Source: Saprospiraceae bacterium (GTDB lineage Bacteria; Bacteroidota; Bacteroidia; Chitinophagales; Saprospiraceae). From it: a stretch of DNA of 64,000 bases. The stretch covers positions 1,560,868-1,624,867 of the forward strand of contig JADJRO010000001.1 in the NCBI GenBank assembly GCA_016712145.1, written 5' to 3'. Shown one piece after another: positions 32,165 through 57,627 of this stretch. Positions within the stretch are counted from its first letter, which is position 1. Each line of letters opens with the position of its first letter. A program made the translations under genes and the position numbers. The notes under the pieces were generated by a model. That model was not told the origin of the DNA and made no database searches. It was given only the letters and a program-made list of their open reading frames with translations.

Positions 32165-32578
32165 ATGAACACAAAAACATTGATTTCTGGCCTACTGGGC
32201 GGGGTATGTTATTTCCTGCTGGGTTGGTTGATTTATGGGGTCTTACTGAAAGATGCTATGAACAGCTCCATGGGTTCCGCCACCGGTGTCATGAGAGGGG
32301 AAGCAGATATGCTTCTTTGGGCAATTGCCATTGGCAATATTGCTACGGGTTTAGGGATGGCTTACATTCTTGGTAACTGGGCAGGTGTAACCAGCTGGGC
32401 AGGAGGTGCCAAAGCTGCTGCTACCGTTGGTGCATTGTTTTCTATAGGTTATGACCTCATTATGTATGCAACCAGCAATATGATGGAGCTTAATGGCATC
32501 TTTATGGATGTTCCAATTTCAATTTTTATGTCTGCTTCTGCCGGTGCTGTGATTGGATGGTGGCTTGGCAGATCTTAA
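32165..32578 (+). CDS. Small 4-TM membrane protein (tandem paralog 1)
   Basis: 137 aa with four hydrophobic segments, ending GWWLGRS. It is clearly homologous to the next ORF. Confidence 0.6.
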   Translation: MNTKTLISGLLGGVCYFLLGWLIYGVLLKDAMNSSMGSATGVMRGEADMLLWAIAIGNIATGLGMAYILGNWAGVTSWAGGAKAAATVGALFSIGYDLIMYATSNMMELNGIFMDVPISIFMSASAGAVIGWWLGRS

Positions 32579-32610: not shown

Positions 32611-33024
32611 ATGAATTCAAAAATTATAATTGCCGCAGTAATTGGCGGTTTATCGTCTTTCCTTTTAGGATGGCTATTTTATGGAATCCTTTTTAAAGAG
32701 GCCTTGGCCGGAATGGCAGGATCAGCAACCAATGTAATGCGTGCAGACAGCGAAATGGTTTGGTGGGCATTGATTATAGGTAATCTAGTCATTGGCTATC
32801 TGGTAGCATTTATGTGGAGCAGTTGGGCAGGAATTACAACTTTTATGGGTGGAGCTAAAGCGGGAGCTATCATTGGCTTTCTTTTTTCATTTGGATGGGA
32901 CATGCTGATGTACGGTACAACCAATTGCATGCAAATGAGTGGCGCCCTTTTAGATGTCATGATTTCTACAATCATGTGGGCCATCTCTGCCGGACTTGTC
33001 GGCTGGTGGTTGGGAAGATCTTAA
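32611..33024 (+). CDS. Small 4-TM membrane protein (tandem paralog 2)
   Basis: 137 aa, the same length as 32165..32578. Shared blocks are LLGWL.YG.L.K.A...M.GSAT.VMR...M..WA..IGN, W.GGAKA... and GWWLGRS. Confidence 0.6.
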   Translation: MNSKIIIAAVIGGLSSFLLGWLFYGILFKEALAGMAGSATNVMRADSEMVWWALIIGNLVIGYLVAFMWSSWAGITTFMGGAKAGAIIGFLFSFGWDMLMYGTTNCMQMSGALLDVMISTIMWAISAGLVGWWLGRS

Positions 33025-46679: not shown

Positions 46680-46753
46680 GGATCGGTAGTTCAGTTGGTT
46701 AGAATGCCGCCCTGTCACGGCGGAGGTCGCGGGTTCGAGTCCCGTCCGGTCCG
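46680..46753 (+). tRNA. tRNA-Asp (anticodon GTC)
   Basis: Hand-folded cloverleaf. Acceptor GGATCGG/CCGGTCC, D-arm GTTC..GAAT, anticodon stem CCGCC/GGCGG with loop CTGTCAC, variable loop AGGTC, T-arm GCGGG-TTCGAGT-CCCGT, discriminator G. It is 74 nt with no encoded CCA. Confidence 0.9.
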
Positions 46754-46755
46754 CA

Positions 46756-46788
46756 AAAGCTTCACTTATTTGGTGGAGCTTTTTTTTT
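46756..46788 (+). terminator. Rho-independent terminator after tRNA-Asp
   Basis: aaagcttcac-ttatttg-gtggagcttt followed by T9. Confidence 0.7.
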
Positions 46789-46792
46789 CTAT

Positions 46793-47064
46793 ATGCCTTT
46801 TTTTGTCTACATCATTGTCAGTTTGCAAAATGGTACTTTTTACAAAGGGTTTTCTCTGAACCCCGTTCTTAGACTTAAGCAACATAATGATGGTCTATCC
46901 AAATATACTTCCAAATTTAAGCCTTGGAAACTGGTTTATGTTGAGCAGTTTTCTTCCAAGTCTGATGCTTTGATTAGGGAAAAAATTTGAAAAAAGCGAC
47001 TAATGAAAGGATCTTGGCTTTGATTGATTCTCCTAAAAATATTGTCAAGACTTTTATTCCTTAA
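46793..47064 (+). pseudogene. GIY-YIG (URI-domain, COG2827-type) small nuclease, copy 1, truncated by a frameshift in an A6 run
   Basis: MPFFVYIIVSLQNGTFYKGFSLNPVLRLKQHNDGLSKYTSKFKPWKLVYVEQFSSKSDALIREK stops at 46990. With A7 (as in copy 2) instead of A6 at 46980-46985 it continues NLKKATNERILALIDSPKNIVKTFIP* to 47064, about 90 aa. Confidence 0.75.
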
Positions 47065-47087
47065 TTTCTAAATTCCTCATTGTTTGT

Positions 47088-47169
47088 ATGCCGCCCTGTC
47101 ATCCCCACAATCCTGTGGGGACGGGTTCGATCCCCACAATGCTATGGGGACTGGTTCCCGTCCGGTCCG
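47088..47169 (+). pseudogene. Partial tRNA-Asp (anticodon stem/loop to 3' end) interrupted by two 20-nt palindromes
   Basis: The layout is atgccgccctgtca (identical to tRNA 46704-46717), then tccccacaatcctgtgggga, then cgggttcga (T-arm core), then tccccacaatgctatgggga, then ctggtt, then cccgtccggtccg (tRNA 3' end). Confidence 0.75.
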
Positions 47170-47171
47170 CA

Positions 47172-47205
47172 AAAGCTTCACTTATTTGGTGGAGCTTTTT
47201 TTTTT
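47172..47205 (+). terminator. Second copy of the tRNA-Asp terminator hairpin
   Basis: Same hairpin as 46756-46788, followed by T10. Confidence 0.6.
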
Positions 47206-47209
47206 CTAT

Positions 47210-47481
47210 ATGCCTTTTTTTGTCTACATCATTGTCAGTTTGCAAAATTGTACTTTTTACAAAGGGTTTTCTCTGAACCCCGTTCTTAGACTTAAGCAAC
47301 ATAATGATGGTCTATCCAAATATACTTCCAAATTAAATCTTGGAAACTGGTTTATGTTGAGCAGTTTTCTTCCAAGTCTGATGCTTTGATTAGGGAAAAA
47401 AATTTGAAAAAAGCGCCTAATGAAAGGATCTTGGCTTTGATTGATTCTCCTAAAAATATTGTCAAGACTTTTATTCCTTAA
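47210..47481 (+). pseudogene. GIY-YIG small nuclease, copy 2, disrupted by a 1-nt deletion
   Basis: MPFFVYIIVSLQNCTFYKGFSLNPVLRLKQHNDGLSKYTSK, then the frame is lost. Near 47333 it reads aaattaaatcttgg where copy 1 has aaatttaagccttgg. The downstream A-run is A7, and the C-terminal coding part to the taa at 47479-47481 is conserved. Confidence 0.7.
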
Positions 47482-47504
47482 ATTCTAAATTCCTCATTGT
47501 TTGT

Positions 47505-47615
47505 ATGCCGCACTGTCATCCCCACAATCCTGTGGGGACGGGTTCGGTCCCCACAATTCTGTGGGGACGAGTTCGATCCCCACAATGCTATGGGGACTCG
47601 CTCCCGTCCGGTCCG
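47505..47615 (+). pseudogene. Partial tRNA-Asp interrupted by three 20-nt palindromes (29-bp unit x3)
   Basis: The layout is atgccgcactgtca, then tccccacaatcctgtgggga-cgggttcgg, then tccccacaattctgtgggga-cgagttcga, then tccccacaatgctatgggga-ctcgct, then cccgtccggtccg. Confidence 0.75.
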
Positions 47616-48180
47616 CAACTCAGGTCCCCACCCTTTTGTGAGGGTATCTGAAATGCAAGCCTAAAACTCCTTTTATTGATTTTAATTTTCCAAACAATCC
47701 ATAAGGAATCGTTTGGAAACTCTTTGGCTTCAGAAATTCATTCATCTCTAAAGTCTTTTTTGAATTTCACAATGATGATACCTGCTGTCTTCAAACACTT
47801 TAAACTGGGTATAAATTTGAATGGATCAAAAATATTTTCAAACCTATCGCTTGTTTCACTTAAGTTTTCTCAAAACGAATTGATAAATCCAGAATTGTCA
47901 GTTGAGTTTGAATTCGATCTGATAGATTCCTACTGCTTATAGCTATTTTATACTAATTCTACTTGATTTCAAAAGGCTTGTGAATCGTTTACTAAAAAAT
48001 TTAGTATAGATAAAGTACATGTAAACTTAAATTAAGAAGCAATCAAAAAAACTTAATACACTTTGAATATTTATACTCCTTGACAGATATCATTCGATCG
48101 TTTGACCCCCGTCATCATTAAATAATTTAATCAAAACTAAAATTGTGAAAAATTAACTATTTAAAATTAAATTATTTAAT

Positions 48181-48957
48181 ATGAAATCGAAGGTATATTT
48201 CTTAATGGCTATAGTAACTACAGCCCTAGTTTATTGGACTTGCACACACGATGATGATAATATCACTCCATCAGGTCCTAAAATAACAAGAGGAACAAAT
48301 GTTCATTTACCTGGAAACCTTACAACAGGAAATCCCAATGAATGGAAATTTGATAAAGTACATTCCAGTGTACTATGGCAAACACGATATGTTGGAGCAT
48401 CTGGTTTGCTGACAGGTAGATTCAATCAATTTGGATTGCATGATGTCATCGATGCAAAGGCTATCAATTACACTGTTACTACACAACCCTTACCAGATTC
48501 TTCCTGGGCATTTTATGAAAATGAACCAGCTAAAAGTTATTTTAACGGATATGTACAGATCAATACCTCTAATACCGGTGAACCTGGTAGAGATGCGGGT
48601 TGCAATGTTGCTGGAATGGGTACTGTAGCGATTGTTACAGGAACACAAAACTTAACTCCACAAAATTTAGCAAAAATTAAAACCAAAGAAATAAAATTTG
48701 ACCCTGCAAGCAATGGGTATATTGTAACGCTTGATTTAACTTATCAGGGAAAATTAACAGCACCCCTTACTAAAACAATCCCTGCAAAACTGAGCTATGT
48801 TCCAAAGCAAACTGTTCAATTTGGAACTGCTGCAGCTTATGATGTATTTGGATTACAATTAAGTTTTCAGTTTAATTGCAGAGATTATGGCATTACCAGC
48901 ACCAGTATTGCAGACATTATAGAAATTCAGTGCAATGCTAACTTTCATAATAAATAA
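48181..48957 (+). CDS. YceI-like domain lipoprotein
   Basis: Lipobox-like N-terminus (ALVYWTCTHDD), then WKFDKVHSSVLWQTRYVGASGLLTGRFNQF, which matches the YceI signature (HS.v.F....g....G.F..f). Confidence 0.55.
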   Translation: MKSKVYFLMAIVTTALVYWTCTHDDDNITPSGPKITRGTNVHLPGNLTTGNPNEWKFDKVHSSVLWQTRYVGASGLLTGRFNQFGLHDVIDAKAINYTVTTQPLPDSSWAFYENEPAKSYFNGYVQINTSNTGEPGRDAGCNVAGMGTVAIVTGTQNLTPQNLAKIKTKEIKFDPASNGYIVTLDLTYQGKLTAPLTKTIPAKLSYVPKQTVQFGTAAAYDVFGLQLSFQFNCRDYGITSTSIADIIEIQCNANFHNK

Positions 48958-48974
48958 ATCCAAAATACAATACA

Positions 48975-49356
48975 ATGAAACCTCAATATAAAAAAACTGG
49001 CTACTATACTTCTTCTTGGTTTTCTGATAATAGGTTGCTATGAAGATGTAATTAGCCCTGAAAGAGACCCGGATGGTCCGCCGCAATCAGTCAGCTTTAA
49101 AAATGATTTGGCCCCACTACTTAATGCAAAGTGCACAGCGGTAGGATGCCATGTAAATGGAGCTCATAAGCCTTATATGGAAGATGTATCACTCTCGTTT
49201 AGAAATATAACAAGCGGTGGATTTGTAAATACTTTGCTACCAAAAGAAAGCATTCTTTACAAGCAGGTAAACGGAGCTATGTCAGAGTTTATTCCATCTA
49301 AAGCAGATAAACAATTGATTTACGATTGGATTCGAAACGGAGCACCAAATAATTGA
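48975..49356 (+). pseudogene. Small lipoprotein (C-x4-CH motif), start separated from body by a frameshift in an A7 run
   Basis: The ATG at 48975 (MKPQYKK...) is in frame +0. The lipoprotein signal KKLATILLLGFLIIGCYED...LLNAKCTAVGCH is in frame +1 and has no canonical start before the TTG at 49108. Changing A7 to A6 at 48990-48996 joins them. Confidence 0.55.
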
Positions 49357-49372
49357 TATTAAAACGAAAATT

Positions 49373-50326
49373 ATGAAAGCAAATAAAATCTCTATTATAA
49401 AACTGGGCATCAGCTTTATATTTTTTCTAACTTGTTTTAGCTGGGTCATGGCACAGGAATTAGAAACAAGCGTGGAAAAAGCTCCACGAAAATATGTAAA
49501 AAACACCTTTGAAAGTGTTTGGCTTATTGACAACCAAACCGTTATGGTCCCTTATAAAGGTACCTTCGAGTTTGACATCGCACACAGGTTTGGAAAAGTA
49601 AACAATGGATTTGAAGATTTGTACGGCCTCTTTGCACCATCAAATATTCGATTTGGTGTAAGTTATGCCCCAATTCAAAACTTAAATGTTGGTTGTGGGT
49701 TGACAAAAGAACGCATGATCTTAGATGGCAGTATAAAATATGCTATTTTGAAACAAACTCAGGATAGTTGGACATTTCCTGTCAGTATAACTTACTATGG
49801 AAATATGTCATACGATCTTAAAGAAGATCCTGATAAGAGCTTGTACAAATATGAAACAGACCGGCTCCGCTTTTTTAATCAATTGATTATTGCCAGAAAG
49901 ATTACTGACAAACTATCGATTCAAGTTGCACCAAGCGTTTCACACCAAAATTTTGTGAACGGCTATTATTTTCAAGTCAATGACTCTACAAAAGAGATTA
50001 GAAATGAAATGAATCACAATCATTTTGCGATCGCATTCTCAGGTAGATACAAATTAACTGAATCCATTTCAATAATGGCTAACTACGATCAGCCCATCAC
50101 GAAGCACACGATTAACAATCCGAATCCTAACCTTTCCTTTGGATTTGAATTCAATACCAGCGGCCACTCATTTCAAATTTTTGCAGGTAATTATGCTTTC
50201 TTAAATCCACAGCGCAACAATATTTTCAATAAAAACAATCCAATAGATTACAAAGATGCCAATAACAATACAGTAAAAGGCGGAACCTTTTTAATTGGAT
50301 TTAACATTACCAGATTGTGGAATTGA
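49373..50326 (+). CDS. Putative outer-membrane beta-barrel protein (DUF5777-like)
   Basis: Signal peptide (FIFFLTCFSWVMAQE), alternating amphipathic strands, and the C-terminal ...FLIGFNITRLWN. The family name is from memory only. Confidence 0.45.
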   Translation: MKANKISIIKLGISFIFFLTCFSWVMAQELETSVEKAPRKYVKNTFESVWLIDNQTVMVPYKGTFEFDIAHRFGKVNNGFEDLYGLFAPSNIRFGVSYAPIQNLNVGCGLTKERMILDGSIKYAILKQTQDSWTFPVSITYYGNMSYDLKEDPDKSLYKYETDRLRFFNQLIIARKITDKLSIQVAPSVSHQNFVNGYYFQVNDSTKEIRNEMNHNHFAIAFSGRYKLTESISIMANYDQPITKHTINNPNPNLSFGFEFNTSGHSFQIFAGNYAFLNPQRNNIFNKNNPIDYKDANNNTVKGGTFLIGFNITRLWN

Positions 50327-50373
50327 ATAGTATTAACTAATTATACCTAATTTTATTCAATTTCAGTATTATA

Positions 50374-50406
50374 AAACCCCGAATACTAAACGATTCGGGG
50401 TTTTTT
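50374..50406 (+). terminator. Rho-independent terminator
   Basis: aaaccccgaat-actaaacg-attcggggttt followed by a T-run. Confidence 0.8.
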
Positions 50407-50428
50407 AATTTATTAATACATTTGTACC

Positions 50429-50941
50429 ATGTACAATAGATTAAACCTATGCTTCACTGTATTACTAATTCTTTCATTGGAGGTATGCTTTCTATTTTCA
50501 TGCAAACAAAAAAGCGAACGATCCGGAATCGAAACAAATACAAATAAACAAGTTAAGCATAAACCCAAATCAAACTATTCAGATAGTTTAGAAATTACAG
50601 GTCCAACAGCTGTCTTTTATTACCCGGATTCCATTCAATTGAAAACGATTCAATCGATTACAGATCCACAAATACTGGATGGTACGTTGCATGAACTTCA
50701 ATTTCAAATAAAATATTCTAAAAAAGTAATTCGATCCAATTGGAGTGAGTTAAATATTGTGGATGCCCAAAATGTTAGATTTCTTGTATTTAAACATGAC
50801 ACCGGTATTCAAAATATAATTGATCTTGATGCCTATGATGATCCCTATGGTTTAATTGTATTTAATGGAAATAAACATCCCGTCTGGATTGATATAACTA
50901 ATTTAGAGCAAGGACTTCATTATTATTTAAAAGTCAAATAA
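50429..50941 (+). CDS. Hypothetical lipoprotein
   Basis: 170-aa ORF with the lipobox LFSCKQK. I recognise no family. Confidence 0.4.
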   Translation: MYNRLNLCFTVLLILSLEVCFLFSCKQKSERSGIETNTNKQVKHKPKSNYSDSLEITGPTAVFYYPDSIQLKTIQSITDPQILDGTLHELQFQIKYSKKVIRSNWSELNIVDAQNVRFLVFKHDTGIQNIIDLDAYDDPYGLIVFNGNKHPVWIDITNLEQGLHYYLKVK

Positions 50942-50983
50942 TGCAACGCACAGACCAACAAATCAGATTAAGAGCCTTAATAT

Positions 50984-53236
50984 ATGGCAACTAAATATAA
51001 GTTTGAAATAAGCCTGATAGCCAGCATGGTGTTGCTCGGCCTTTCGATTTATACTTATAATAATCTAAATTTTGATTTCAATCTGCGTAAATTATTCCCA
51101 TCCACAAGCTCAGATACTAAATTCTACGATGAATTTGTGGAAACATTTGACGCTCATGTTGATGAAAATGCCATGATCATTGTAATTCCTGCAAATGCCG
51201 GCATTTTTAACCAACATTTTTTATATAAACTGGATAGTCTGAGTAGTTTTCTAAGCTCTCAGGAATTTATTTCAAAAGTATATTCCATTACCAATTTAAA
51301 TTGTATCTACTTTACAAATAATGAATTTAATGCAAGATCATTGGTTCGGATTGACAAGCCGGAACTTTATGAACAAGATTCACTTTATATTTTCTCATCC
51401 CCAGAATATTATAAACACTTCTTTTCTAAGAATCACAAAGCGTGTGCACTGACGGTCTTGTTTAAAACACCGCTTATAAGTACCCAATTCAATGTATTTA
51501 ATAATAAGTTGATGCTTGAATTAAATAAATTGAATCTCTCTCAGGTTCATATTCTTTCAGCAAAACTCATCGAACAAGCTTATGTACAACAAATAAAAAA
51601 AGAAGCTATTCGATTTTCAATAATTTCCTTTTTGTTTATCACTATAGGTTGGGTTTTAATATTCAAATCAATAAAACAATTGTTCATTCCAATACTAGCC
51701 CTTTCTATTAGCCTGGTAATTGTATTATCTATCATGGCGTATTCAAACCAAACTATAAATTTACTAAGTAGTTTGTTGCCAATTATTCTTATAACAACTT
51801 GCCTTACCGGAATCATTCATCTGATTTCAATAAACACGGAGCTAGAGACATCGCGTAACCACAACAACCGTTTTTATAATAGCCTTTCAACCGGTGAAAA
51901 GGCTGTTTTAATTTCATCAATAACCAGTGCAATTGGCTTTCTTGCCTTAATTTTTTCGGATATTCAAGCTTTACAAACTTTTGGATTATTTACCGCGCTT
52001 GGAATAATGATTGTGTTTGTAACTAGCCTTTTATTTCTAAAAAGATTCCTTCCCGGATTCCAAAATGTTCGAACTGAACTATCACACAGAACATGGTATC
52101 CTTTTTATACTAGATTTTACAATTTCCTAGTGAAACACTCTGTAAAAATAATAGTCTCTAGTTTTTCTATATTGATCGTTTCAATTTTTTTTATCACTAA
52201 AATTAAGATCAATGGAAGTCATTTAAACGAATTTCCAACAAAGCACCCAATAACGAGCGCTTTGTTGTTTTTTGAAAAAGAATTTGGCGGAAGTTACCCC
52301 ATTGAGATTGTGTTAACCAATACGAAAAAGAATGAAAGCTTTTATGAGTTGTCGCAATTGCAAAAAGTGGATACATTCATACAATTTCTGGAAGATTCCT
52401 GTAATTTACAATTAATCCGATCTCCTGTTTCACTTATTAAAGCAACCAACAAAGCATATAATGGAGGCAATCCAACGGAATATGAATTTCCAAAAGAACA
52501 GTCTCAATTAAATGGGTATCTGCAAAATATAATGCAGACAGAATATGCTGAAGATCTCAGACGCTACCTAACAGAAGATGGTCAACAGTTAAGAATTAGT
52601 GGCACTCGAGCTGATTTACAATTAATAGAAAAGCAAACGTTCGATAAAAAAATCACAGGTTTTTCCAACCAAATGCCGTTCAAAGTCCAGCAAACCGGAG
52701 CTGCATATACAATGGAACTGATTCCCTATTCGCTGATTGAAACAATGTTACCAAGCCTTGTGATTGCACTTTTCATTTTATCAATCCTGATGTGGACCTA
52801 TTTTAACATGGCATGGTTAATTCCCATTGCTCTATTTATCATTCTTTTCCCTATGATTCTATTAGCCGGCTTTATGGGATTAACGGGGATTTATCTAAAA
52901 GCAGATACTGCCATCCTTTTTTCTTTTGCCTTTGTTCTTTCTGTGGACTATACCATTCATTTTTTAAATAGGTTTAAAACTGAGAATTCAAAATCCAAAC
53001 ATTTGGATGATGCCTTACGAGCTACTGGTGTATTAATAGCTAAACCATTAACTATCAAGTCATTAATACTGCTGAGCGGATTTTTAAGTTTATTGATTTC
53101 TGATTTTAAAGGGATTTATACAATGGGCATAATGATTTCAATGAGCATCGTTTTTGTTTGGATATGCCATTTGACTCTCCTGCCTTTTATAATTCGTAAA
53201 TATTTTAACAAGTTTATTGATAACCAATACCACTGA
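50984..53236 (+). CDS. RND-superfamily / MMPL-type (COG1033, sterol-sensing-domain-like) exporter
   Basis: 750 aa with two blocks of ~5-6 TM helices, each preceded by a large soluble loop. Typical segments are LLSSLLPIILITTCLTGIIHL and AILFSFAFVLSVDYTIHFLNRF. Confidence 0.65.
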   Translation: MATKYKFEISLIASMVLLGLSIYTYNNLNFDFNLRKLFPSTSSDTKFYDEFVETFDAHVDENAMIIVIPANAGIFNQHFLYKLDSLSSFLSSQEFISKVYSITNLNCIYFTNNEFNARSLVRIDKPELYEQDSLYIFSSPEYYKHFFSKNHKACALTVLFKTPLISTQFNVFNNKLMLELNKLNLSQVHILSAKLIEQAYVQQIKKEAIRFSIISFLFITIGWVLIFKSIKQLFIPILALSISLVIVLSIMAYSNQTINLLSSLLPIILITTCLTGIIHLISINTELETSRNHNNRFYNSLSTGEKAVLISSITSAIGFLALIFSDIQALQTFGLFTALGIMIVFVTSLLFLKRFLPGFQNVRTELSHRTWYPFYTRFYNFLVKHSVKIIVSSFSILIVSIFFITKIKINGSHLNEFPTKHPITSALLFFEKEFGGSYPIEIVLTNTKKNESFYELSQLQKVDTFIQFLEDSCNLQLIRSPVSLIKATNKAYNGGNPTEYEFPKEQSQLNGYLQNIMQTEYAEDLRRYLTEDGQQLRISGTRADLQLIEKQTFDKKITGFSNQMPFKVQQTGAAYTMELIPYSLIETMLPSLVIALFILSILMWTYFNMAWLIPIALFIILFPMILLAGFMGLTGIYLKADTAILFSFAFVLSVDYTIHFLNRFKTENSKSKHLDDALRATGVLIAKPLTIKSLILLSGFLSLLISDFKGIYTMGIMISMSIVFVWICHLTLLPFIIRKYFNKFIDNQYH

Positions 53237-53336
53237 TAACTATCATAGTAATACATGCTTGGTATCAATAGTCAGTATAACGGAGTATGCTACCTTGCAC
53301 TTATAATGAATTTCGATTCAATTTTCAAAAAATTAA

Positions 53337-53759
53337 ATGTTATCTAAAATGAAAAATTTATTAAAAAAGGCCCTTTATCTCTCGATTCTAACCGGGGTTT
53401 TTATCGTTTATTCTCAAAATTTAATGGCTCAAAATGCCTGGAATGCGCCAGCAAAAGCCATTGGTGTAGCTAATCCTATAAAAAGCAGTCCTGCTTCTAT
53501 AGCAGCTGGTAAATCATTATGGACCAGACATTGCCAGTCTTGTCATGGCAAAACCGGAATGGGGGATGGATCCAAAGCTGCCCAACTTAAAACAGAACCA
53601 GGGGATTTTACAATTGCAAAGTTTCAGGGACAAACTGATGGCTCCATTTTTTATAAAACTTTGGAAGGCAGAGAAGACATGCCAAGTTTCAAAAAGAAAA
53701 TTCCGGATACCGATGATATTTGGAATTTAGTAAATTTCATCAGAACCTTAAAAAAGTAA
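53337..53759 (+). CDS. Monoheme class-I c-type cytochrome
   Basis: Signal peptide, a single CQSCHG heme-binding motif, and a distal Met region (GREDMPSF); 140 aa. Confidence 0.8.
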   Translation: MLSKMKNLLKKALYLSILTGVFIVYSQNLMAQNAWNAPAKAIGVANPIKSSPASIAAGKSLWTRHCQSCHGKTGMGDGSKAAQLKTEPGDFTIAKFQGQTDGSIFYKTLEGREDMPSFKKKIPDTDDIWNLVNFIRTLKK

Positions 53760-53773
53760 GTCTTTTCATATTT

Positions 53774-53797
53774 GCTGCCGGTCATCGTACCGGCAGC
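53774..53797 (+). terminator. GC-rich 9-bp hairpin after the cytochrome c gene (terminator/attenuator candidate, weak T-tract)
   Basis: gctgccggt-catcgt-accggcagc lies 15 nt after the stop and is followed by tcctattattt. Confidence 0.4.
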
Positions 53798-53875
53798 TCC
53801 TATTATTTATAAATACATCATTCTTTAATCCTCGGTATTTTGGATTGAACAGATTTTCTATTAATTTTTTGCAAT

Positions 53876-54106
53876 ATGAATTTATTTAAAACTAACATAT
53901 CAAGAAAAAACTTCGTTGTGTGGATGGGCGGCTTTGCAATTCTTCTTACCGCAATTCGATTTAAACTTTTTACTTCAAAACCAAAAAGCAGTATGAAATT
54001 TCTAACTGAAGATGGTAAATTAGTTGAGGTAGATACAAAACATTTAAATAAGAAGGGAACTAAAATTTACACTTCAGATATCTTTTCCTGGATTAAAAAT
54101 AAATAA
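53876..54106 (+). CDS. Small membrane-anchored protein resembling the leader region of the downstream NrfC-like protein
   Basis: 76 aa. SRKNFVVWMGGFAILL parallels TRRAFLGGGLISALML. MKFLTEDGKLVEVDTKHLNK parallels VKLLSVDGEIIEVDRAFLKP of ORF 54118..55059. It ends 11 nt before that ORF. Confidence 0.5.
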   Translation: MNLFKTNISRKNFVVWMGGFAILLTAIRFKLFTSKPKSSMKFLTEDGKLVEVDTKHLNKKGTKIYTSDIFSWIKNK

Positions 54107-54117
54107 TTAAAATCATC

Positions 54118-55059
54118 GTGAGCATGGACAATAATAAATCACAAACACGAAGAGCTTTTCTTGGAGGAGGCCTGATCTCTGCCTTGATGTTGAATGCGTG
54201 TGATCAAAAACAACATCCATTTATTACGGATGAATCCGGGTTGCCATCCGGAGACATGGTAAAATTATTATCGGTAGATGGAGAGATCATTGAGGTGGAT
54301 CGCGCATTTTTAAAACCAGTTCCAGATTTACCACCAATATCAAATGAAGAAGCAAGAATTGGAATTGAGGGTAAAAAATTTGTAATGGTGATTGATTTGT
54401 CGCGTTGCAAAAATCTTAAAAAATGTCAACAAGCTTGTAATCATGTGCATCATGTTCACCCCGGTCAAAATTGGATTAAAGTATATTCAATGCAGGAAGC
54501 TGAACATACAGCGCCATATTGGCAGCCAACCACTTGCATGCATTGTGACGAACCTCCATGTGTAAAAGTGTGTCCAGTAGATGCAACGTTTAAAAGAAAA
54601 GATGGCATTGTACTAATTGATAGTGATCGTTGTGTGGGCTGTCGTTTTTGTATGGCAGCGTGTCCATATTCAACCAGAGTTTTTAACTGGGAGGAACCAG
54701 ATATCCCATTAGAAATTGCCCAAAAAGCTTATGACTGTGAAAGCAGTACGCCTCAAAAGAAAGGAACAGTTGGCAAATGTGATTTTTGTCCGGATGCTGT
54801 AAGAAAAGGAGAACTACCGCACTGTGTGTCTTCTTGCCCGAATGGCGTTTTCTTTTTTGGGGACCTTATTGAAGATTCTGTAACTAATGGCGCTGAAACG
54901 TTTCGCTTCTCTGAATTAATCAAAGACAAAGCCGGATACCGTTTGATGGAAGATTTAGGTACTAAACCAAGTGTTTATTATTTACCTCCGGTAAGTAGAA
55001 ATTTTCCCTATGAAAGCGGATTAGAAAATCAAGCCCCTGCAAATTCACATTCACATTAA
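54118..55059 (+). CDS. Tat-exported 4Fe-4S ferredoxin-type subunit (NrfC/PsrB/DsrO/ActB-FeS family)
   Basis: Tat signal QTRRAFLGGG. Cys clusters CKNLKKCQQAC, CMHCDEPPCVKVCP, CVGCRFCMAACP and CDFC....LPHCVSSCP. Confidence 0.8.
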   Translation: MSMDNNKSQTRRAFLGGGLISALMLNACDQKQHPFITDESGLPSGDMVKLLSVDGEIIEVDRAFLKPVPDLPPISNEEARIGIEGKKFVMVIDLSRCKNLKKCQQACNHVHHVHPGQNWIKVYSMQEAEHTAPYWQPTTCMHCDEPPCVKVCPVDATFKRKDGIVLIDSDRCVGCRFCMAACPYSTRVFNWEEPDIPLEIAQKAYDCESSTPQKKGTVGKCDFCPDAVRKGELPHCVSSCPNGVFFFGDLIEDSVTNGAETFRFSELIKDKAGYRLMEDLGTKPSVYYLPPVSRNFPYESGLENQAPANSHSH

Positions 55060-55068
55060 ATCCAAGCT

Positions 55069-56391
55069 ATGAATGCCGTTACAATTTCCAAGACAGAACA
55101 AATAATAAAAGATACTCAACCAAGAGCATTTGGAAAAGTGGGAAAAGTGTGGCTTGGTTTTCTAATAGCAATTTGCATCGTCGGATGTTATGCCTATTAT
55201 TGTCAACTTCGCGATGGTTTGGTGGTCACAGCGATGGGGGATTATGTTTCATGGGGTATTTACATTTCCAACTTTGTGTTTTTTGTGGCTATTAGTTTGG
55301 TTGGATCATTAATAACAGCAATATTCCGACTGGCAAACATTCATTGGAGTACGCCCATTACACGAATCGCAGAGATTATTGCAGTAAGTGCTATATTTTT
55401 TGCATCGTTGATTATCATCGTCGATATGGGGCGTCCCGAACGTTTATACAATTTGTTTTTACACCCCAGGCTACAGTCTCCTATCATTTGGGATGTGGTT
55501 GTAATCGGTACCTATTTTATAATCAGTTTGTTACTCTTATATCTCCCATTGCTTCCGGATATAAAAATACTTTTAAAACAAAGTAAAGATATGCCGAAAT
55601 GGATGCGTACATTTTACACTTGGCTTGGATCTTTTTGGACTGGTAGCAAAGTTCAAAAACAACTAAACAATCACAGTATTAAAATATTAAGCATCATGAT
55701 CATTCCGGTGGCCTTCTGCATTCACACCGTTACGTCCTGGTTGTTTGCAACCACCTACAGACCCGGATGGGACAGTACAAATTTTGGTGCCTATTTTGTT
55801 TCAGGAGCATTTCTTGTAGGTGCTGGTGCTGTTGTCATTGCGATGTATGTCTTCCGTCAAATGTATCAATTGAGTGATTATATAACCGAAAAGCATTTTG
55901 ACAGAATGGGAAAAGCGGTGGTTTTATTGGCATTTCTTTATTTATACTTCAATGTCAATGAATACTTAGTCCCTGCATTTAAAATGAAAAAACCGGAAGA
56001 AATTCATCTTACTGAATTATTTTCCGGACATTTTGCACCTATGTTTTGGTTTGCAATCATCGTTGGGATGTTGCTTCCAATAGCAATTCTAATTACAAAA
56101 GCTGGCAGAAAACCCATGTTAGTATTTATTGCAGGCATCATGGTGGTTGTGGGAGCATGGTTTAAGCGCTATCTCATTGTGACCCCTACTTTGTTACACC
56201 CCTTTCTTCCCATGCAAGACGTACCTGAAAAATTCAGAGTCTATTTTCCAAGTTGGCATGAATGGGCTATAGCTTTTGGATCGCTTGCTGGTGCTTTATT
56301 GATCATTACTTTATTCGCTAGAGTATTTCCTGTAATTCCTATTTATGAAACAATAATTGGTGAAGATGAAAACGAAGAGCATCTTATTTAA
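55069..56391 (+). CDS. NrfD/PsrC-family integral membrane quinone-interacting subunit (long ~10-TM type, DsrP/ActC-like)
   Basis: 440 aa and highly hydrophobic with about 10 predicted helices. It lies immediately downstream (9 nt) of the NrfC-like gene. The N-terminal region (WGIYISNFVFFVAISLVGS) is typical of NrfD proteins. Confidence 0.7.
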   Translation: MNAVTISKTEQIIKDTQPRAFGKVGKVWLGFLIAICIVGCYAYYCQLRDGLVVTAMGDYVSWGIYISNFVFFVAISLVGSLITAIFRLANIHWSTPITRIAEIIAVSAIFFASLIIIVDMGRPERLYNLFLHPRLQSPIIWDVVVIGTYFIISLLLLYLPLLPDIKILLKQSKDMPKWMRTFYTWLGSFWTGSKVQKQLNNHSIKILSIMIIPVAFCIHTVTSWLFATTYRPGWDSTNFGAYFVSGAFLVGAGAVVIAMYVFRQMYQLSDYITEKHFDRMGKAVVLLAFLYLYFNVNEYLVPAFKMKKPEEIHLTELFSGHFAPMFWFAIIVGMLLPIAILITKAGRKPMLVFIAGIMVVVGAWFKRYLIVTPTLLHPFLPMQDVPEKFRVYFPSWHEWAIAFGSLAGALLIITLFARVFPVIPIYETIIGEDENEEHLI

Positions 56392-57277
56392 TTTAGCACT
56401 CATCTTGGTTTTTATTACAAGTCAGCTAAACATTATACTTAGTCAGTCTGATACGCTTGTCCCTGTAGTAAAAAAGAAAGCCATCCTTAAACTAAGTTAT
56501 TTTAATTTAGAAAATAAAATTCAGTTTCTTAATTTTCAAGGATTAATAAAATCGAAAGAGCGTCTAGATCCGATTTCATACCGTCCAATTCATATTTATA
56601 TAAATGATGCAGAAGATGAAAAAAATAAAATTGGTGATTTTGTAACCAATGACCAGGGTAGAATTCAAACAGTTATCAGTCCAGTATTTGCTGATCTATG
56701 GAAATCAACCAATCCAAATCTATTTATTGCAAGACTTGATTCTGTAGATGAAATGGGAATACTGGAAACAGAAGTTGAAATTACAAAGGCAAAAATTAAA
56801 TTGGATACGATTCAGGAGGATGGAATAAAAAAGCTACTGGTCCAAGTCTTAAGCCTGGAAGATACCAGTTGGATTCCTGCAGTGGATGTTGAAATAAAAA
56901 TTGGAGTACAACGGTTAGCATCTGTTTTACCCATAAATAAAGAAGCAACAATAACAACAGATTCTACCGGTAGGGGGGTTGCTGATTTTGAATTGGATTC
57001 AATACCTGGAGATCAAACTGGAATGATTCACTTAGTTGCAAAAATTGAAGATCATGAACTCTTTGGAAATCTTGAAACCTCACTTCAAGTACCTTGGGGT
57101 ATACCAAGCCATTTTATTAATACCCATTTTGAAGCGAGAAGTCTGTGGGCGAGGGGGGATAAAGTTCCTGTTTGGTTGGCAGTGTTGGCATACTCCATCA
57201 TTTTTTCAGTTTGGGGTACATTAATTTATTTAATCCTCCAATTTTTTAAAATTAGACGATTGGGTTTACAGAAATAA
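56366..57277 (+). CDS. Hypothetical bitopic protein (signal peptide + C-terminal TM), possibly with prealbumin/CarboxypepD_reg-like beta domains
   Basis: Starts MKTKSILFNLALILVFITSQ at 56366 and overlaps the nrfD-like 3' end. It has two segments resembling IHIYINDAE...FVTNDQGRIQ and VEIKIGVQ...TTDSTGRGVADF, and a C-terminal TM VWLAVLAYSIIFSVWGTLIYLILQFF. Confidence 0.45.
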   Translation: MKTKSILFNLALILVFITSQLNIILSQSDTLVPVVKKKAILKLSYFNLENKIQFLNFQGLIKSKERLDPISYRPIHIYINDAEDEKNKIGDFVTNDQGRIQTVISPVFADLWKSTNPNLFIARLDSVDEMGILETEVEITKAKIKLDTIQEDGIKKLLVQVLSLEDTSWIPAVDVEIKIGVQRLASVLPINKEATITTDSTGRGVADFELDSIPGDQTGMIHLVAKIEDHELFGNLETSLQVPWGIPSHFINTHFEARSLWARGDKVPVWLAVLAYSIIFSVWGTLIYLILQFFKIRRLGLQK

Positions 57278-57627
57278 ATTAAACCAAAAATTTTTTAAAC
57301 AATTCAATTGGCACCTATTTATTAACTGGAAATCAACCGGGCTGTCATTCATAGAAACGAAGCTTTTTAATATCCAAATCAGCCCATAGTCAAGCCATAG
57401 ATGGAGTTTTTAGTATTTCCTCGATACAGCGGTTGGAGTTACAAATTTTGATTTATATTATTATTATTATTAATGTATATAATATTAATTAATAACAATT
57501 TATATTACTTATTAGAAAAAGTAGTCCGATAATAATATTCTCAGCCGACTTTCCTTTAACTTGGCTTTTAAAACGAAACGGATTGATTACGGCTGAAATG
57601 CCATAAAATTTTGATTTTATGATATTT

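Follow-up and report, generated by a model that had tools for sequence, protein, structure and literature searches.

Integrase islands and prophages that occupy tRNA genes are bounded by attL and attR sites, which carry a duplicated 3′ part of the tRNA. In phage T6, a tRNA cluster also encodes the GIY-YIG enzyme SegB, and the breaks that this enzyme makes drive tandem amplification of a 718-bp tRNA-Tyr-segB unit (PMC13096335). Amplification proceeds via short homologies between the tRNA and the unit ends, and SegB homologues are often found within 1 kb of tRNAs (PMC13096335). Here we describe a locus in a 64-kb stretch of DNA from a Saprospiraceae bacterium (the whole of this analysed stretch is hereafter the window), in which an intact tRNA-Asp gene is followed by two tandem units, each composed of a tRNA 3′ end, a terminator, a 90-aa GIY-YIG open reading frame (ORF), and a partial tRNA copy interrupted by a hairpin. 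With middling confidence, we read the locus as two tandem copies of a nuclease cassette that is selfish, resides at tRNA genes, and is driven by recombination, its mechanism being one that we infer.

SegB is the closest documented precedent for this cassette. In both systems a GIY-YIG ORF lies beside a tRNA, and a unit of a few hundred base pairs made of tRNA sequence and a nuclease gene is repeated in tandem. The cassette protein, however, is a 90-aa Slx1/UPF0213 catalytic core, encoded chromosomally and with no relative in IMG/VR viral contigs, and the cassette carries a hairpin-interrupted, non-functional tRNA copy while one intact tRNA is kept. SegB, by contrast, is phage-encoded and cuts where recognisable sequence features occur, and the tRNA that it amplifies is complete and functional (PMC13096335). 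Homing enzymes of the I-TevI type differ in having a DNA-binding domain, whereas the cassette protein consists only of the catalytic core. The resemblance to tRNA-borne islands lies in the intact tRNA at one end and the 3′-part repeat at the other, in the tandem arrays, and in breakpoints at the anticodon loop and T loop. Unlike such islands, the cassette is 0.4 kb long and lacks an integrase, and its tRNA copy reaches the D loop or position 1, bears a hairpin, and may stand on either side of the true tRNA.

The sole tRNA that ARAGORN detects in the window is tRNA-Asp(GTC) at 46680-46754, a functional gene on the forward (+) strand, as are all array features given below. Rfam agrees (RF00005, 68.1 bits, 46680-46753), and the sequence is identical in 37 related loci. 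This gene forms the left edge of an array of two units, 416 and 446 bp long and 94% identical, that start at 46740 and 47156. Each unit opens with one copy of a 49-nt perfect direct repeat found by repeat search, which joins the tRNA 3′ end (TCCCGTCCGGTCCGCA) to the terminator; the left copy, which bounds unit 1, spans 46740-46788 and is 100% identical to 47156-47204. The intrinsic terminator detected by a terminator scan, a 12-bp stem followed by a T run, lies within the repeated unit at 46755-46788 (hairpin 46755-46783) and recurs in identical form at 47171-47204 (hairpin 47171-47199). There it follows the second copy of the tRNA 3′ end at 47156-47171, an exact 16-mer that comprises the T-stem 3′ strand, acceptor 3′ strand, discriminator, and CA. 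A third exact copy of 16 nt at 47602-47617 marks the right edge of the array, and the flank beyond it has no canonical terminator. The initial annotation had already recognised the intact tRNA at 46680 and its recurring 3′ end near 47157, with terminator, and near 47603, all of which these searches bear out.

Copy 1 of the GIY-YIG ORF (46793-47064), whose ATG at 46793 lies five bases past the terminator T run, reads as 65 aa and encodes 90 aa once repaired, having A6 around 46981-46986 where intact relatives have A7. Copy 2 (47210-47481) lacks one T near 47333 (TTT to TT) and carries two substitutions. Both assignments come from the ORF list, alignment, and tblastn, with Pfam for copy 1. Two near-identical ORFs of about 90 aa with exactly these differences had been reported in the initial annotation as separately inactivated; the differences stand, and the inactivation is doubtful, since both frameshifts fall in homopolymer runs and the closest assemblies are metagenome-assembled genomes (MAGs), so that they may be sequencing errors.

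Downstream of copy 1, pseudo-tRNA 1 begins with a tRNA-derived segment at 47082-47101 (GTTTGTATGCCGCCCTGTCA) that corresponds to roughly tRNA positions 20-37, from the end of the D loop through the anticodon-stem 5′ strand and loop. The anticodon stem and loop sequence ATGCCGCCCTGTCA is found exactly at 46704 and 47088 and with one mismatch at 47505, the latter two being where it had first been noticed to recur. Hairpin 1a, the perfect palindrome TCCCCACA-ATCC-TGTGGGGA at 47102-47121, then takes the place of tRNA positions 38-49 and belongs to a class present in 30+ other loci. It is followed by CGGGTTCGA (47122-47130), the T-stem 5′ strand and T loop by comparison with tRNA positions 50-58, and by hairpin 1b at 47131-47150 (TCCCCACAATGCTATGGGGA, one mismatch in the stem), which belongs to the second of the 29-nt sub-repeats (hairpin plus CGGGTTCGA) revealed by repeat search and lies in the T loop. 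Unit 1 has two such sub-repeats and unit 2 has three. In unit 2, the tRNA-derived segment of pseudo-tRNA 2 (47499-47518) has one mismatch (ATGCCGCACTGTCA), and repeat search and unit alignment place the three sub-repeats, each a hairpin and then a T-loop-like 9-mer, at 47519-47596, with perfect hairpins at 47519-47538 and 47548-47567 and one with a single mismatch at 47577-47596. A perfect 20-nt palindrome of the form TCCCCACA-N4-TGTGGGGA thus stands in place of tRNA positions 38-49 in each partial copy, and both pseudo-tRNAs lack the acceptor 5′ strand. Past the right edge lies a degenerate hairpin akin to that of the cassette (47623-47645, GGTCCCCACCCTTTTGTGAGGGT, by repeat search), which is better kept in the related locus L001 (CCCCCACAGCTTTGTGAGGG). 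The hairpin motif has five matches in the window against zero expected, all of them at the array, and the tRNA fragments and GIY-YIG copies recur nowhere else in the 64 kb; a dispersed REP-like element is rejected on the same ground, the hairpin being found nowhere else in the window.

A protein-alignment scan of one genome per GTDB species returned 79 homologous loci, mostly from Chitinophagaceae, Saprospiraceae, Sphingobacteriales, and Cytophagales. Upstream sequence is long enough to be evaluated in 67 loci, and in 45 of these a same-strand tRNA ends no more than 80 nt (median 36 nt) before the ATG; 41 of these tRNAs are Asp, two Ser, one Val, and one Arg. Nine further loci have tRNA-Asp 84-1207 nt upstream of the ORF, and in L008, L026, and L043 pseudo-tRNA units that lack an ORF fill the interval. 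Such units, 115-180 bp long and five to nine in number, each hold a hairpin, T arm, 3′ end, and terminator of their own and stand between tRNA-Asp and the ORF (L026 1219-2460, L008 1643-2460, L043, and L007); those of L008 contain extra palindromes within the T loop. At least 22 of 78 loci have two to five tandem ORFs.

In nearly every locus the cognate tRNA reappears as a copy right behind the stop codon, complete with the lineage-specific substitutions of the true tRNA. In this copy a GC-rich perfect hairpin, TCYC...GRGA in the cassette consensus, replaces the anticodon-stem 3′ strand and variable loop or, in certain lineages, portions of the T or D arm. At its 5′ side the partial tRNA goes as far as the D loop, or even position 1 in some genomes, and most pseudo-tRNAs lack the acceptor 5′ strand. 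In several genomes the ORF stop is the TAG of the pseudo-tRNA 5′ region (U8-A9-G10 or D arm); elsewhere it is a TGA in a mutated pseudo-tRNA acceptor 5′ strand. Four cassettes have at their left edge only a 17-19-nt tRNA 3′ fragment and a terminator, the true tRNA lies inside the array in L048 and L060, and tandem pairs of true tRNA-Asp genes precede the cassettes in L069, L071, and L082.

The arrangement is not confined to this protein clade or to tRNA-Asp. In Chitinophagaceae, members of a second, 83-aa clade, which has 247 relatives in the database, accompany tRNA-Arg(TCT) in like manner, both in the locus from which the query was taken and in all three further loci that were opened (L085, L117, L118, and L119). 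The downstream tRNA copies of these loci have a TCCCGA/TCGGGA stem in place of the anticodon stem and retain the loop, and ARAGORN calls some of these copies tRNAs. The same plan is seen at tRNA-Ser in an acidobacterium, at tRNA-Val and tRNA-Met in the candidate phyla radiation, and at tRNA-Asp in an ignavibacterium. The order is pseudo-tRNA, ORF, and true tRNA at the tRNA-Met and ignavibacterial loci. In all, five tRNA species and four phyla share the architecture.

These comparisons recast the initial annotation, which had taken the layout for the classical attL-element-att-element-attR picture with units bounded by tRNA 3′ halves. Most homologous ORFs do adjoin a tRNA and a fragment of that tRNA, and the units are bounded by tRNA copies, but the copies are not plain 3′ halves: a palindrome is embedded in them and their sequence reaches the D loop. 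We abandon the classical att picture because the partial tRNA extends 5′ to the D loop and sometimes to position 1, a conserved, covarying hairpin interrupts the copy, the fragment matches the local tRNA variant, and the intact tRNA may stand inside the array or after the ORF.

The hairpin itself was examined in 18 distinct stems by a base-anchored pair count; a MAFFT alignment of the hairpins lost the stem register. Pairing occupies 98% of stem positions, compared with a mean of 77% and a maximum of 88% for shuffled partners (0/2000 reach the observed value). Basal pairs 1 and 2 are always T-A and C-G, and pairs 3-7 each show two to four compensatory pair types, with one G-T pair in L049. Judged by this covariation, the hairpin is a selected feature linked to the nuclease. 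It varies in spacer and stem length (14-27 nt) and in its position within the tRNA (anticodon arm, T loop, or D loop). The loop varies in length and sequence and occurs in both orientations, ATCC and GGAT (compare L001 4312-4331 with window 47102-47121), so the whole palindrome can be flipped. The combination of a variable stem length with a conserved stem base favours recognition of a folded structure.

In a neighbour-joining tree without support values, the hairpin type tracks the nuclease clade rather than the host family. The other Saprospiraceae, whose proteins are 55-56% identical to that of the window, have a TCTCTAC hairpin, and L012 combines a protein of the tRNA-Asp clade and a TCCCCACA hairpin with a pseudo-tRNA-Ser. 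This pseudo-tRNA-Ser (L012 2766-2852) matches its cognate over 44 nt and differs from it at five of nine positions in the acceptor 3′ strand (AGTCTCCGC vs CCTCACCGC), a pattern that looks like a recombination junction or an import from another tRNA-Ser, not random decay. Several origins of the hairpin were considered and rejected. P-nucleotide-like or fold-back repair scars do not fit, as the arms are not inverted copies of flanking tRNA; a split-tRNA or intron analogy with a break at 37/38 fails because removal of the hairpin leaves 12 nt still missing; and ends-in gap repair of a circle cut at the hairpin cannot be the whole story, since positions 38-49 would come back and the hairpin would disappear. 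No Rfam 15 family matches the hairpin or pseudo-tRNA in the window, where the true tRNA alone passes.

The repaired window ORF encodes a GIY-YIG domain (Pfam PF01541, E = 2e-16, residues 3-72). Y6, Y17, G19, R27, H31, N32, and E63 are invariant among 20 sequences with 59-98% identity to the window protein; going by the GIY-YIG enzymes that have been characterised, we take the Tyr, Arg, His, and Glu residues among them to be catalytic. The ratio of nonsynonymous to synonymous substitution rates (dN/dS) between pairs of cassette ORFs has a median of 0.15, with 27 of 27 usable pairs below 0.5; by this measure, the ORF is under long-term purifying selection. Sequence searches match the UPF0213 entries 1ywl (1.9e-8) and 1zg2 (8.7e-6) as well as SLX1 (~2e-3). 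The AlphaFold model (predicted local distance difference test score 94.8; elements E3-10, E16-21, H24-32, E45-53, H56-68, and H71-78) superimposes on Slx1 with a root-mean-square deviation of ~2 Å over ~72 residues (Foldseek E ~6e-4). Foldseek returns 1zg2, the catalytic domain of plant HIGLE (7wme), and Slx1 at E values of 9e-5 to 1e-3, and UvrC and I-TevI far more weakly (E 0.6-0.9). The protein thus models as a predicted structure-specific nuclease core of the Slx1 type (UPF0213), and neither Pfam nor the model, a single compact domain, reveals a second domain or DNA-binding module in its 90 aa.

No NCBIfam, PADLOC, or PHROGs model matches the protein. It is 71% identical to its Mucilaginibacter counterpart and 55-56% identical to those of other Saprospiraceae, values to be read in light of a short protein and possible ancient paralogy, and it clusters with Mucilaginibacter in the neighbour-joining tree, which carries no support values. 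The likeness to UPF0213 (1ywl and 1zg2) and to Slx1/HIGLE covers sequence, predicted fold, and the minimal single domain, but distant plasmid members of the family are not linked to tRNAs, and one lies between sufB and sufC. This last homologue (38% identity; L111, Azospirillum lipoferum 4B plasmid AZO_p3, 255506-255799) is a small GIY-YIG gene inserted in another conserved operon, again with no tRNA linkage. For the bacterial stand-alone Slx1-like family, the searchable literature reports no function or genomic rule.

Copy number at the locus varies among close relatives. P0001, an intact protein 98% identical to that of the window, is encoded at the same syntenic locus, with the gene order M1 peptidase, DUF4397, M48 peptidase, and tRNA-Asp at both. 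Five tandem cassettes each stand at this locus in two Saprospiraceae MAGs (L001 and L002), which share ~92% identity with the window in the flanks, and two JGI contigs have at least two. Comparison of window 46740-47574 with L001 2311-4337 gives 94-97% identity for cassette DNA and 92.4% for the flanking chromosome, a difference that may reflect stronger constraint on the cassettes or their more recent exchange. Among finished genomes, the isolate Paraflavitalea soli (CP032157) has four diverged tandem cassettes and Mucilaginibacter ginkgonis has one. From short-read metagenomes come two contigs (539 and 504 bp) whose ends overlap exactly over 127 and 87 nt; they are collapsed repeats of unit length. 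Most database homologues sit on 500-1500-bp contigs or at contig ends (L003 and L004 among them), which indicates that short-read assembly systematically fails at tRNA-Asp and tRNA-Arg loci, where the cassettes make it break or collapse.

An empty tRNA-Asp locus, whose existence in relatives the initial annotation had envisaged, was found by a metagenome scan with the upstream M48 peptidase as query. Three sister-species contigs (L086-L088; 78-80% protein identity) carry the M48 peptidase and then tRNA-Asp, with no GIY-YIG ORF, tRNA fragment, or palindrome after the tRNA. In L086 an ordinary terminator follows, and then YceI and DUF5777 as in the window; since the downstream genes are shared, those at 48-57 kb are ancestral neighbours and not an island. 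The empty-site tRNA-Asp (L086 4929-5003, L087, and L088) reads ACGTGC...GCACGGGGTC where the window has GCCGCC...GGCGGAGGTC, and the differences fall in the anticodon stem and variable loop, exactly the region that the hairpin replaces. They could reflect target resistance or co-conversion, but L050 has cassettes on the empty-site tRNA-Asp variant.

Pfam identifies no integrase among the nine neighbouring ORFs of the window, which are housekeeping and membrane genes (M48 peptidase, YceI, DUF5777, MMPL, cytochrome c, Fe-S, and NrfD). A downstream integrase island that might account for the repeats, a possibility raised at the outset, is ruled out by this result together with the same genes in the empty-site relative. 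More generally, no integrase occurs in any locus examined: each unit has one ORF, and the nuclease is the only conserved gene. Pfam likewise finds no transposase domain, and the unit ends lack the terminal inverted repeats of an insertion sequence, transposon, or miniature inverted-repeat transposable element; the duplicated sequence around the units is tRNA-derived, 16-60 nt long, and is not a short target-site duplication. A phage or plasmid origin was rejected as well, as the IMG/VR viral contigs hold no cassette relative and plasmid homologues are only 34-40% identical and without tRNA linkage.

The flanking region shows a further difference between relatives. About 9.9 kb to the right of the array (window ~47660-57515), carrying the YceI, DUF5777, MMPL, cytochrome c, Fe-S, and NrfD genes, is absent from both five-cassette MAGs (L001 4380-4895 and L002), which have ~0.5 kb of unrelated sequence instead. 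As L086 keeps the gene order of the window, this absence is a deletion starting at the array edge. Elsewhere in the window, two unrelated adjacent ORFs of 137 aa each (32165-32578 and 32611-33024) are 49% identical (E = 1e-47) and appear hydrophobic by reading.

How might such a cassette persist? The ORF would depend for its expression on transcripts that start at the strong tRNA promoter and read through the terminator, a route made probable by the lack of an evident promoter of its own and by an ATG 5-10 nt after the T run. The cassette's left edge rebuilds an intact tRNA and terminator, which leaves little cost to the host. Unequal exchange of the RecA type between the flanking tRNA-derived repeats would expand, contract, and precisely delete the cassette, and the same exchange could place an excised or incoming cassette into any gene for the same tRNA. 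Variation in copy number, empty sites, and ORF-less repeat arrays are all observed and are consistent with unequal exchange. The nuclease, for its part, would cut the base of its own hairpin or cruciform, or else the tRNA gene, and by analogy with SegB the resulting breaks may stimulate recombination. Of the selfish tRNA-targeting cassette first proposed, then, a real, integrase-free, tRNA-linked unit has held up, and its homing or mobilisation by the nuclease would follow only if the steps above are right.

Five points weigh against this reading. With no DNA-binding domain, sequence-specific homing by the protein is hard to picture. An intact, identical tRNA always stands beside the nuclease, so that a model in which the enzyme cuts an empty tRNA allele leaves the carrier itself cleavable. 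Near-identical cassettes have not been found between species, nor any phage or plasmid copy, and recent horizontal movement is therefore unsupported. The conserved neighbourhood of the tRNA-Arg clade in L117-L119 (UDG, acyltransferase, and LptD_2) fits long vertical inheritance. Finally, the symmetry of the palindrome could alternatively stem from a protein dimer that binds duplex DNA.

The first alternative is a module that acts at the RNA level and serves the host, in which the substrate of the GIY-YIG protein is RNA (tRNA-Asp or its precursor, or the pseudo-tRNA transcript) and the repeats are regulatory, decoy, or antitoxin RNAs; we consider this possible, though unlikely. The order of strong tRNA promoter, terminator, and small nuclease ORF suits it, as do the five to nine ORF-less pseudo-tRNA repeats with their own terminators ahead of the ORF in some loci and the long-term purifying selection on the ORF. 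In P. soli, the Rfam tRNA model gives one full-length hairpin copy a score of 29.2 bits (for the others, no family reaches its gathering score), and the G-T pair of L049 is compatible with G-U pairing in RNA. Fusions in bacteria point the same way: Slx1-like GIY-YIG domains are joined to tRNA methyltransferases, a finding from which earlier authors proposed an RNA role (PMC1564403). Against such a module, the closest folds are DNA-junction nucleases, and most pseudo-tRNAs lack the acceptor 5′ strand and would form no tRNA-like acceptor helix. The characterised GIY-YIG enzymes are, to our knowledge, DNases. No PADLOC model matches, and a cassette that occurs patchily, has empty sites in relatives, and may be frameshifted in some copies is unlikely to be essential to the host.

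The RNA-level alternative has a described counterpart in type III toxin-antitoxin systems (ToxIN), which likewise combine an array of structured RNA repeats, a terminator, and a small nuclease gene in the manner of L008 and L026. The ToxIN toxin is an endoRNase of another fold, and the cassette differs in that its repeats are tRNA-derived, have terminators of their own, and usually come after the ORF, with no match in PADLOC.

Rather unlikely, in our estimate, is a passive history in which an ancestral tRNA duplication trapped a resident gene and ordinary unequal crossing-over built the arrays without involvement of the nuclease, and we are equally doubtful that the tRNA copies are decaying and that their hairpins stem from terminators or serve to stabilise mRNA. 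Tandem pairs of true tRNA-Asp genes do exist in L069, L071, and L082, the 49-nt perfect repeats suffice for slippage or unequal exchange, and the tRNA-Arg clade neighbourhood is conserved. The tRNA-Asp terminators of some loci also resemble the hairpin, as in L008 (GCTCCACAGCAATGTGGGGC). However, neutral decay does not yield hairpins that are perfect, occupy equivalent positions of the tRNA in many lineages, and keep their basal pairs unchanged while the inner pairs vary in compensating fashion. The same architecture on five tRNA species in four phyla, a hairpin type that goes with the nuclease clade and not the host family, and the tRNA-Asp-type hairpin within the pseudo-tRNA-Ser of L012 also speak against a passive history.

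A variant of the nuclease-cassette reading, to which we give slight credence, makes the hairpin-bearing pseudo-tRNA an adapter that targets the nuclease, with the hairpin as scaffold and the tRNA flanks as guide, in the form of folded DNA or RNA. The whole would then be, with the same slight probability, a minimal self-retargeting, nucleic-acid-guided homing system directed to genes for the same tRNA. This proposal arises from a hairpin that is constant within a nuclease clade while its flanks always match the local tRNA (Asp, Arg, Ser, Val, or Met), and L012, with the hairpin and protein of the tRNA-Asp clade between tRNA-Ser flanks, fits it. TnpB and IscB with their omega RNAs would offer a likeness, as nucleic-acid-guided nucleases.

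We regard it as very improbable that the cassette, as a non-autonomous element, depends for its movement on a recombinase whose gene lies elsewhere, be it Xer or a tyrosine or serine integrase, with the hairpin and a 26-nt tRNA segment acting as att. The order of intact tRNA, element, and partial tRNA and the tandem arrays would accord with it; the CGGGTTCGA...GCA segment adjoins the palindrome without a gap in most tRNA-Asp-linked loci, and the unit-length contigs with terminal overlaps are compatible with circles. Yet no locus examined holds an integrase, the nuclease is the only conserved gene, the tRNA fragment always matches the local variant, and a hairpin that ranges from 14 to 27 nt and shifts its position in the tRNA is unlike the fixed core site of a recombinase. 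Lastly, the chance that an assembly artefact falsely duplicated one cassette is negligible: although the repeat lies in a probable MAG, short-read assemblers collapse or break here, and many homologous loci are at contig ends, the two window units differ by 6% and by a 29-nt sub-repeat, two to five copies stand at the same locus in independent assemblies, and the finished P. soli isolate genome has four diverged copies.

Returning to the cassette as a proposed selfish nuclease unit, its combination of a small gene with hairpins of conserved bases and variable stem, in arrays of variable number, recalls REP/RAYT 'REPtrons', IS200/IS605 elements, and integron attC sites. It differs from these in having neither an HUH transposase nor an integron integrase, in hairpins that are undispersed and confined to the adjoining tRNA copies, and in that all cassettes carry the same gene. 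In the searchable full-text literature we found no description of the arrangement, the only relevant papers being that on SegB (PMC13096335) and the 2006 GIY-YIG survey (PMC1564403). Already known are the protein family, the tRNA-associated GIY-YIG homing genes of phages, and the tRNA 3′-end duplications of integrase-borne islands; what sets the cassette apart is that a nuclease of the Slx1 type without accessory domains goes together with a selected hairpin inside the partial tRNA copy and with tandem arrays free of any integrase, on several tRNAs and in several phyla.

The cassettes explain, in this data set, the breakage or collapse of short-read assemblies and the pseudo-tRNAs at Bacteroidota tRNA-Asp and tRNA-Arg loci. 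A 90-aa nuclease with a short cognate hairpin is also an easy target for biochemistry and a possible tool. For the bacterial stand-alone Slx1-like (UPF0213) family, the linkage provides the first genomic rule for a part of its members, as at least two clades lie directly after tRNA genes and are accompanied by a selected hairpin of DNA or RNA. If truly selfish, the cassette would represent a new, integrase-free form of tRNA-gene parasitism and a chromosomal counterpart of the SegB-driven amplification of phages.

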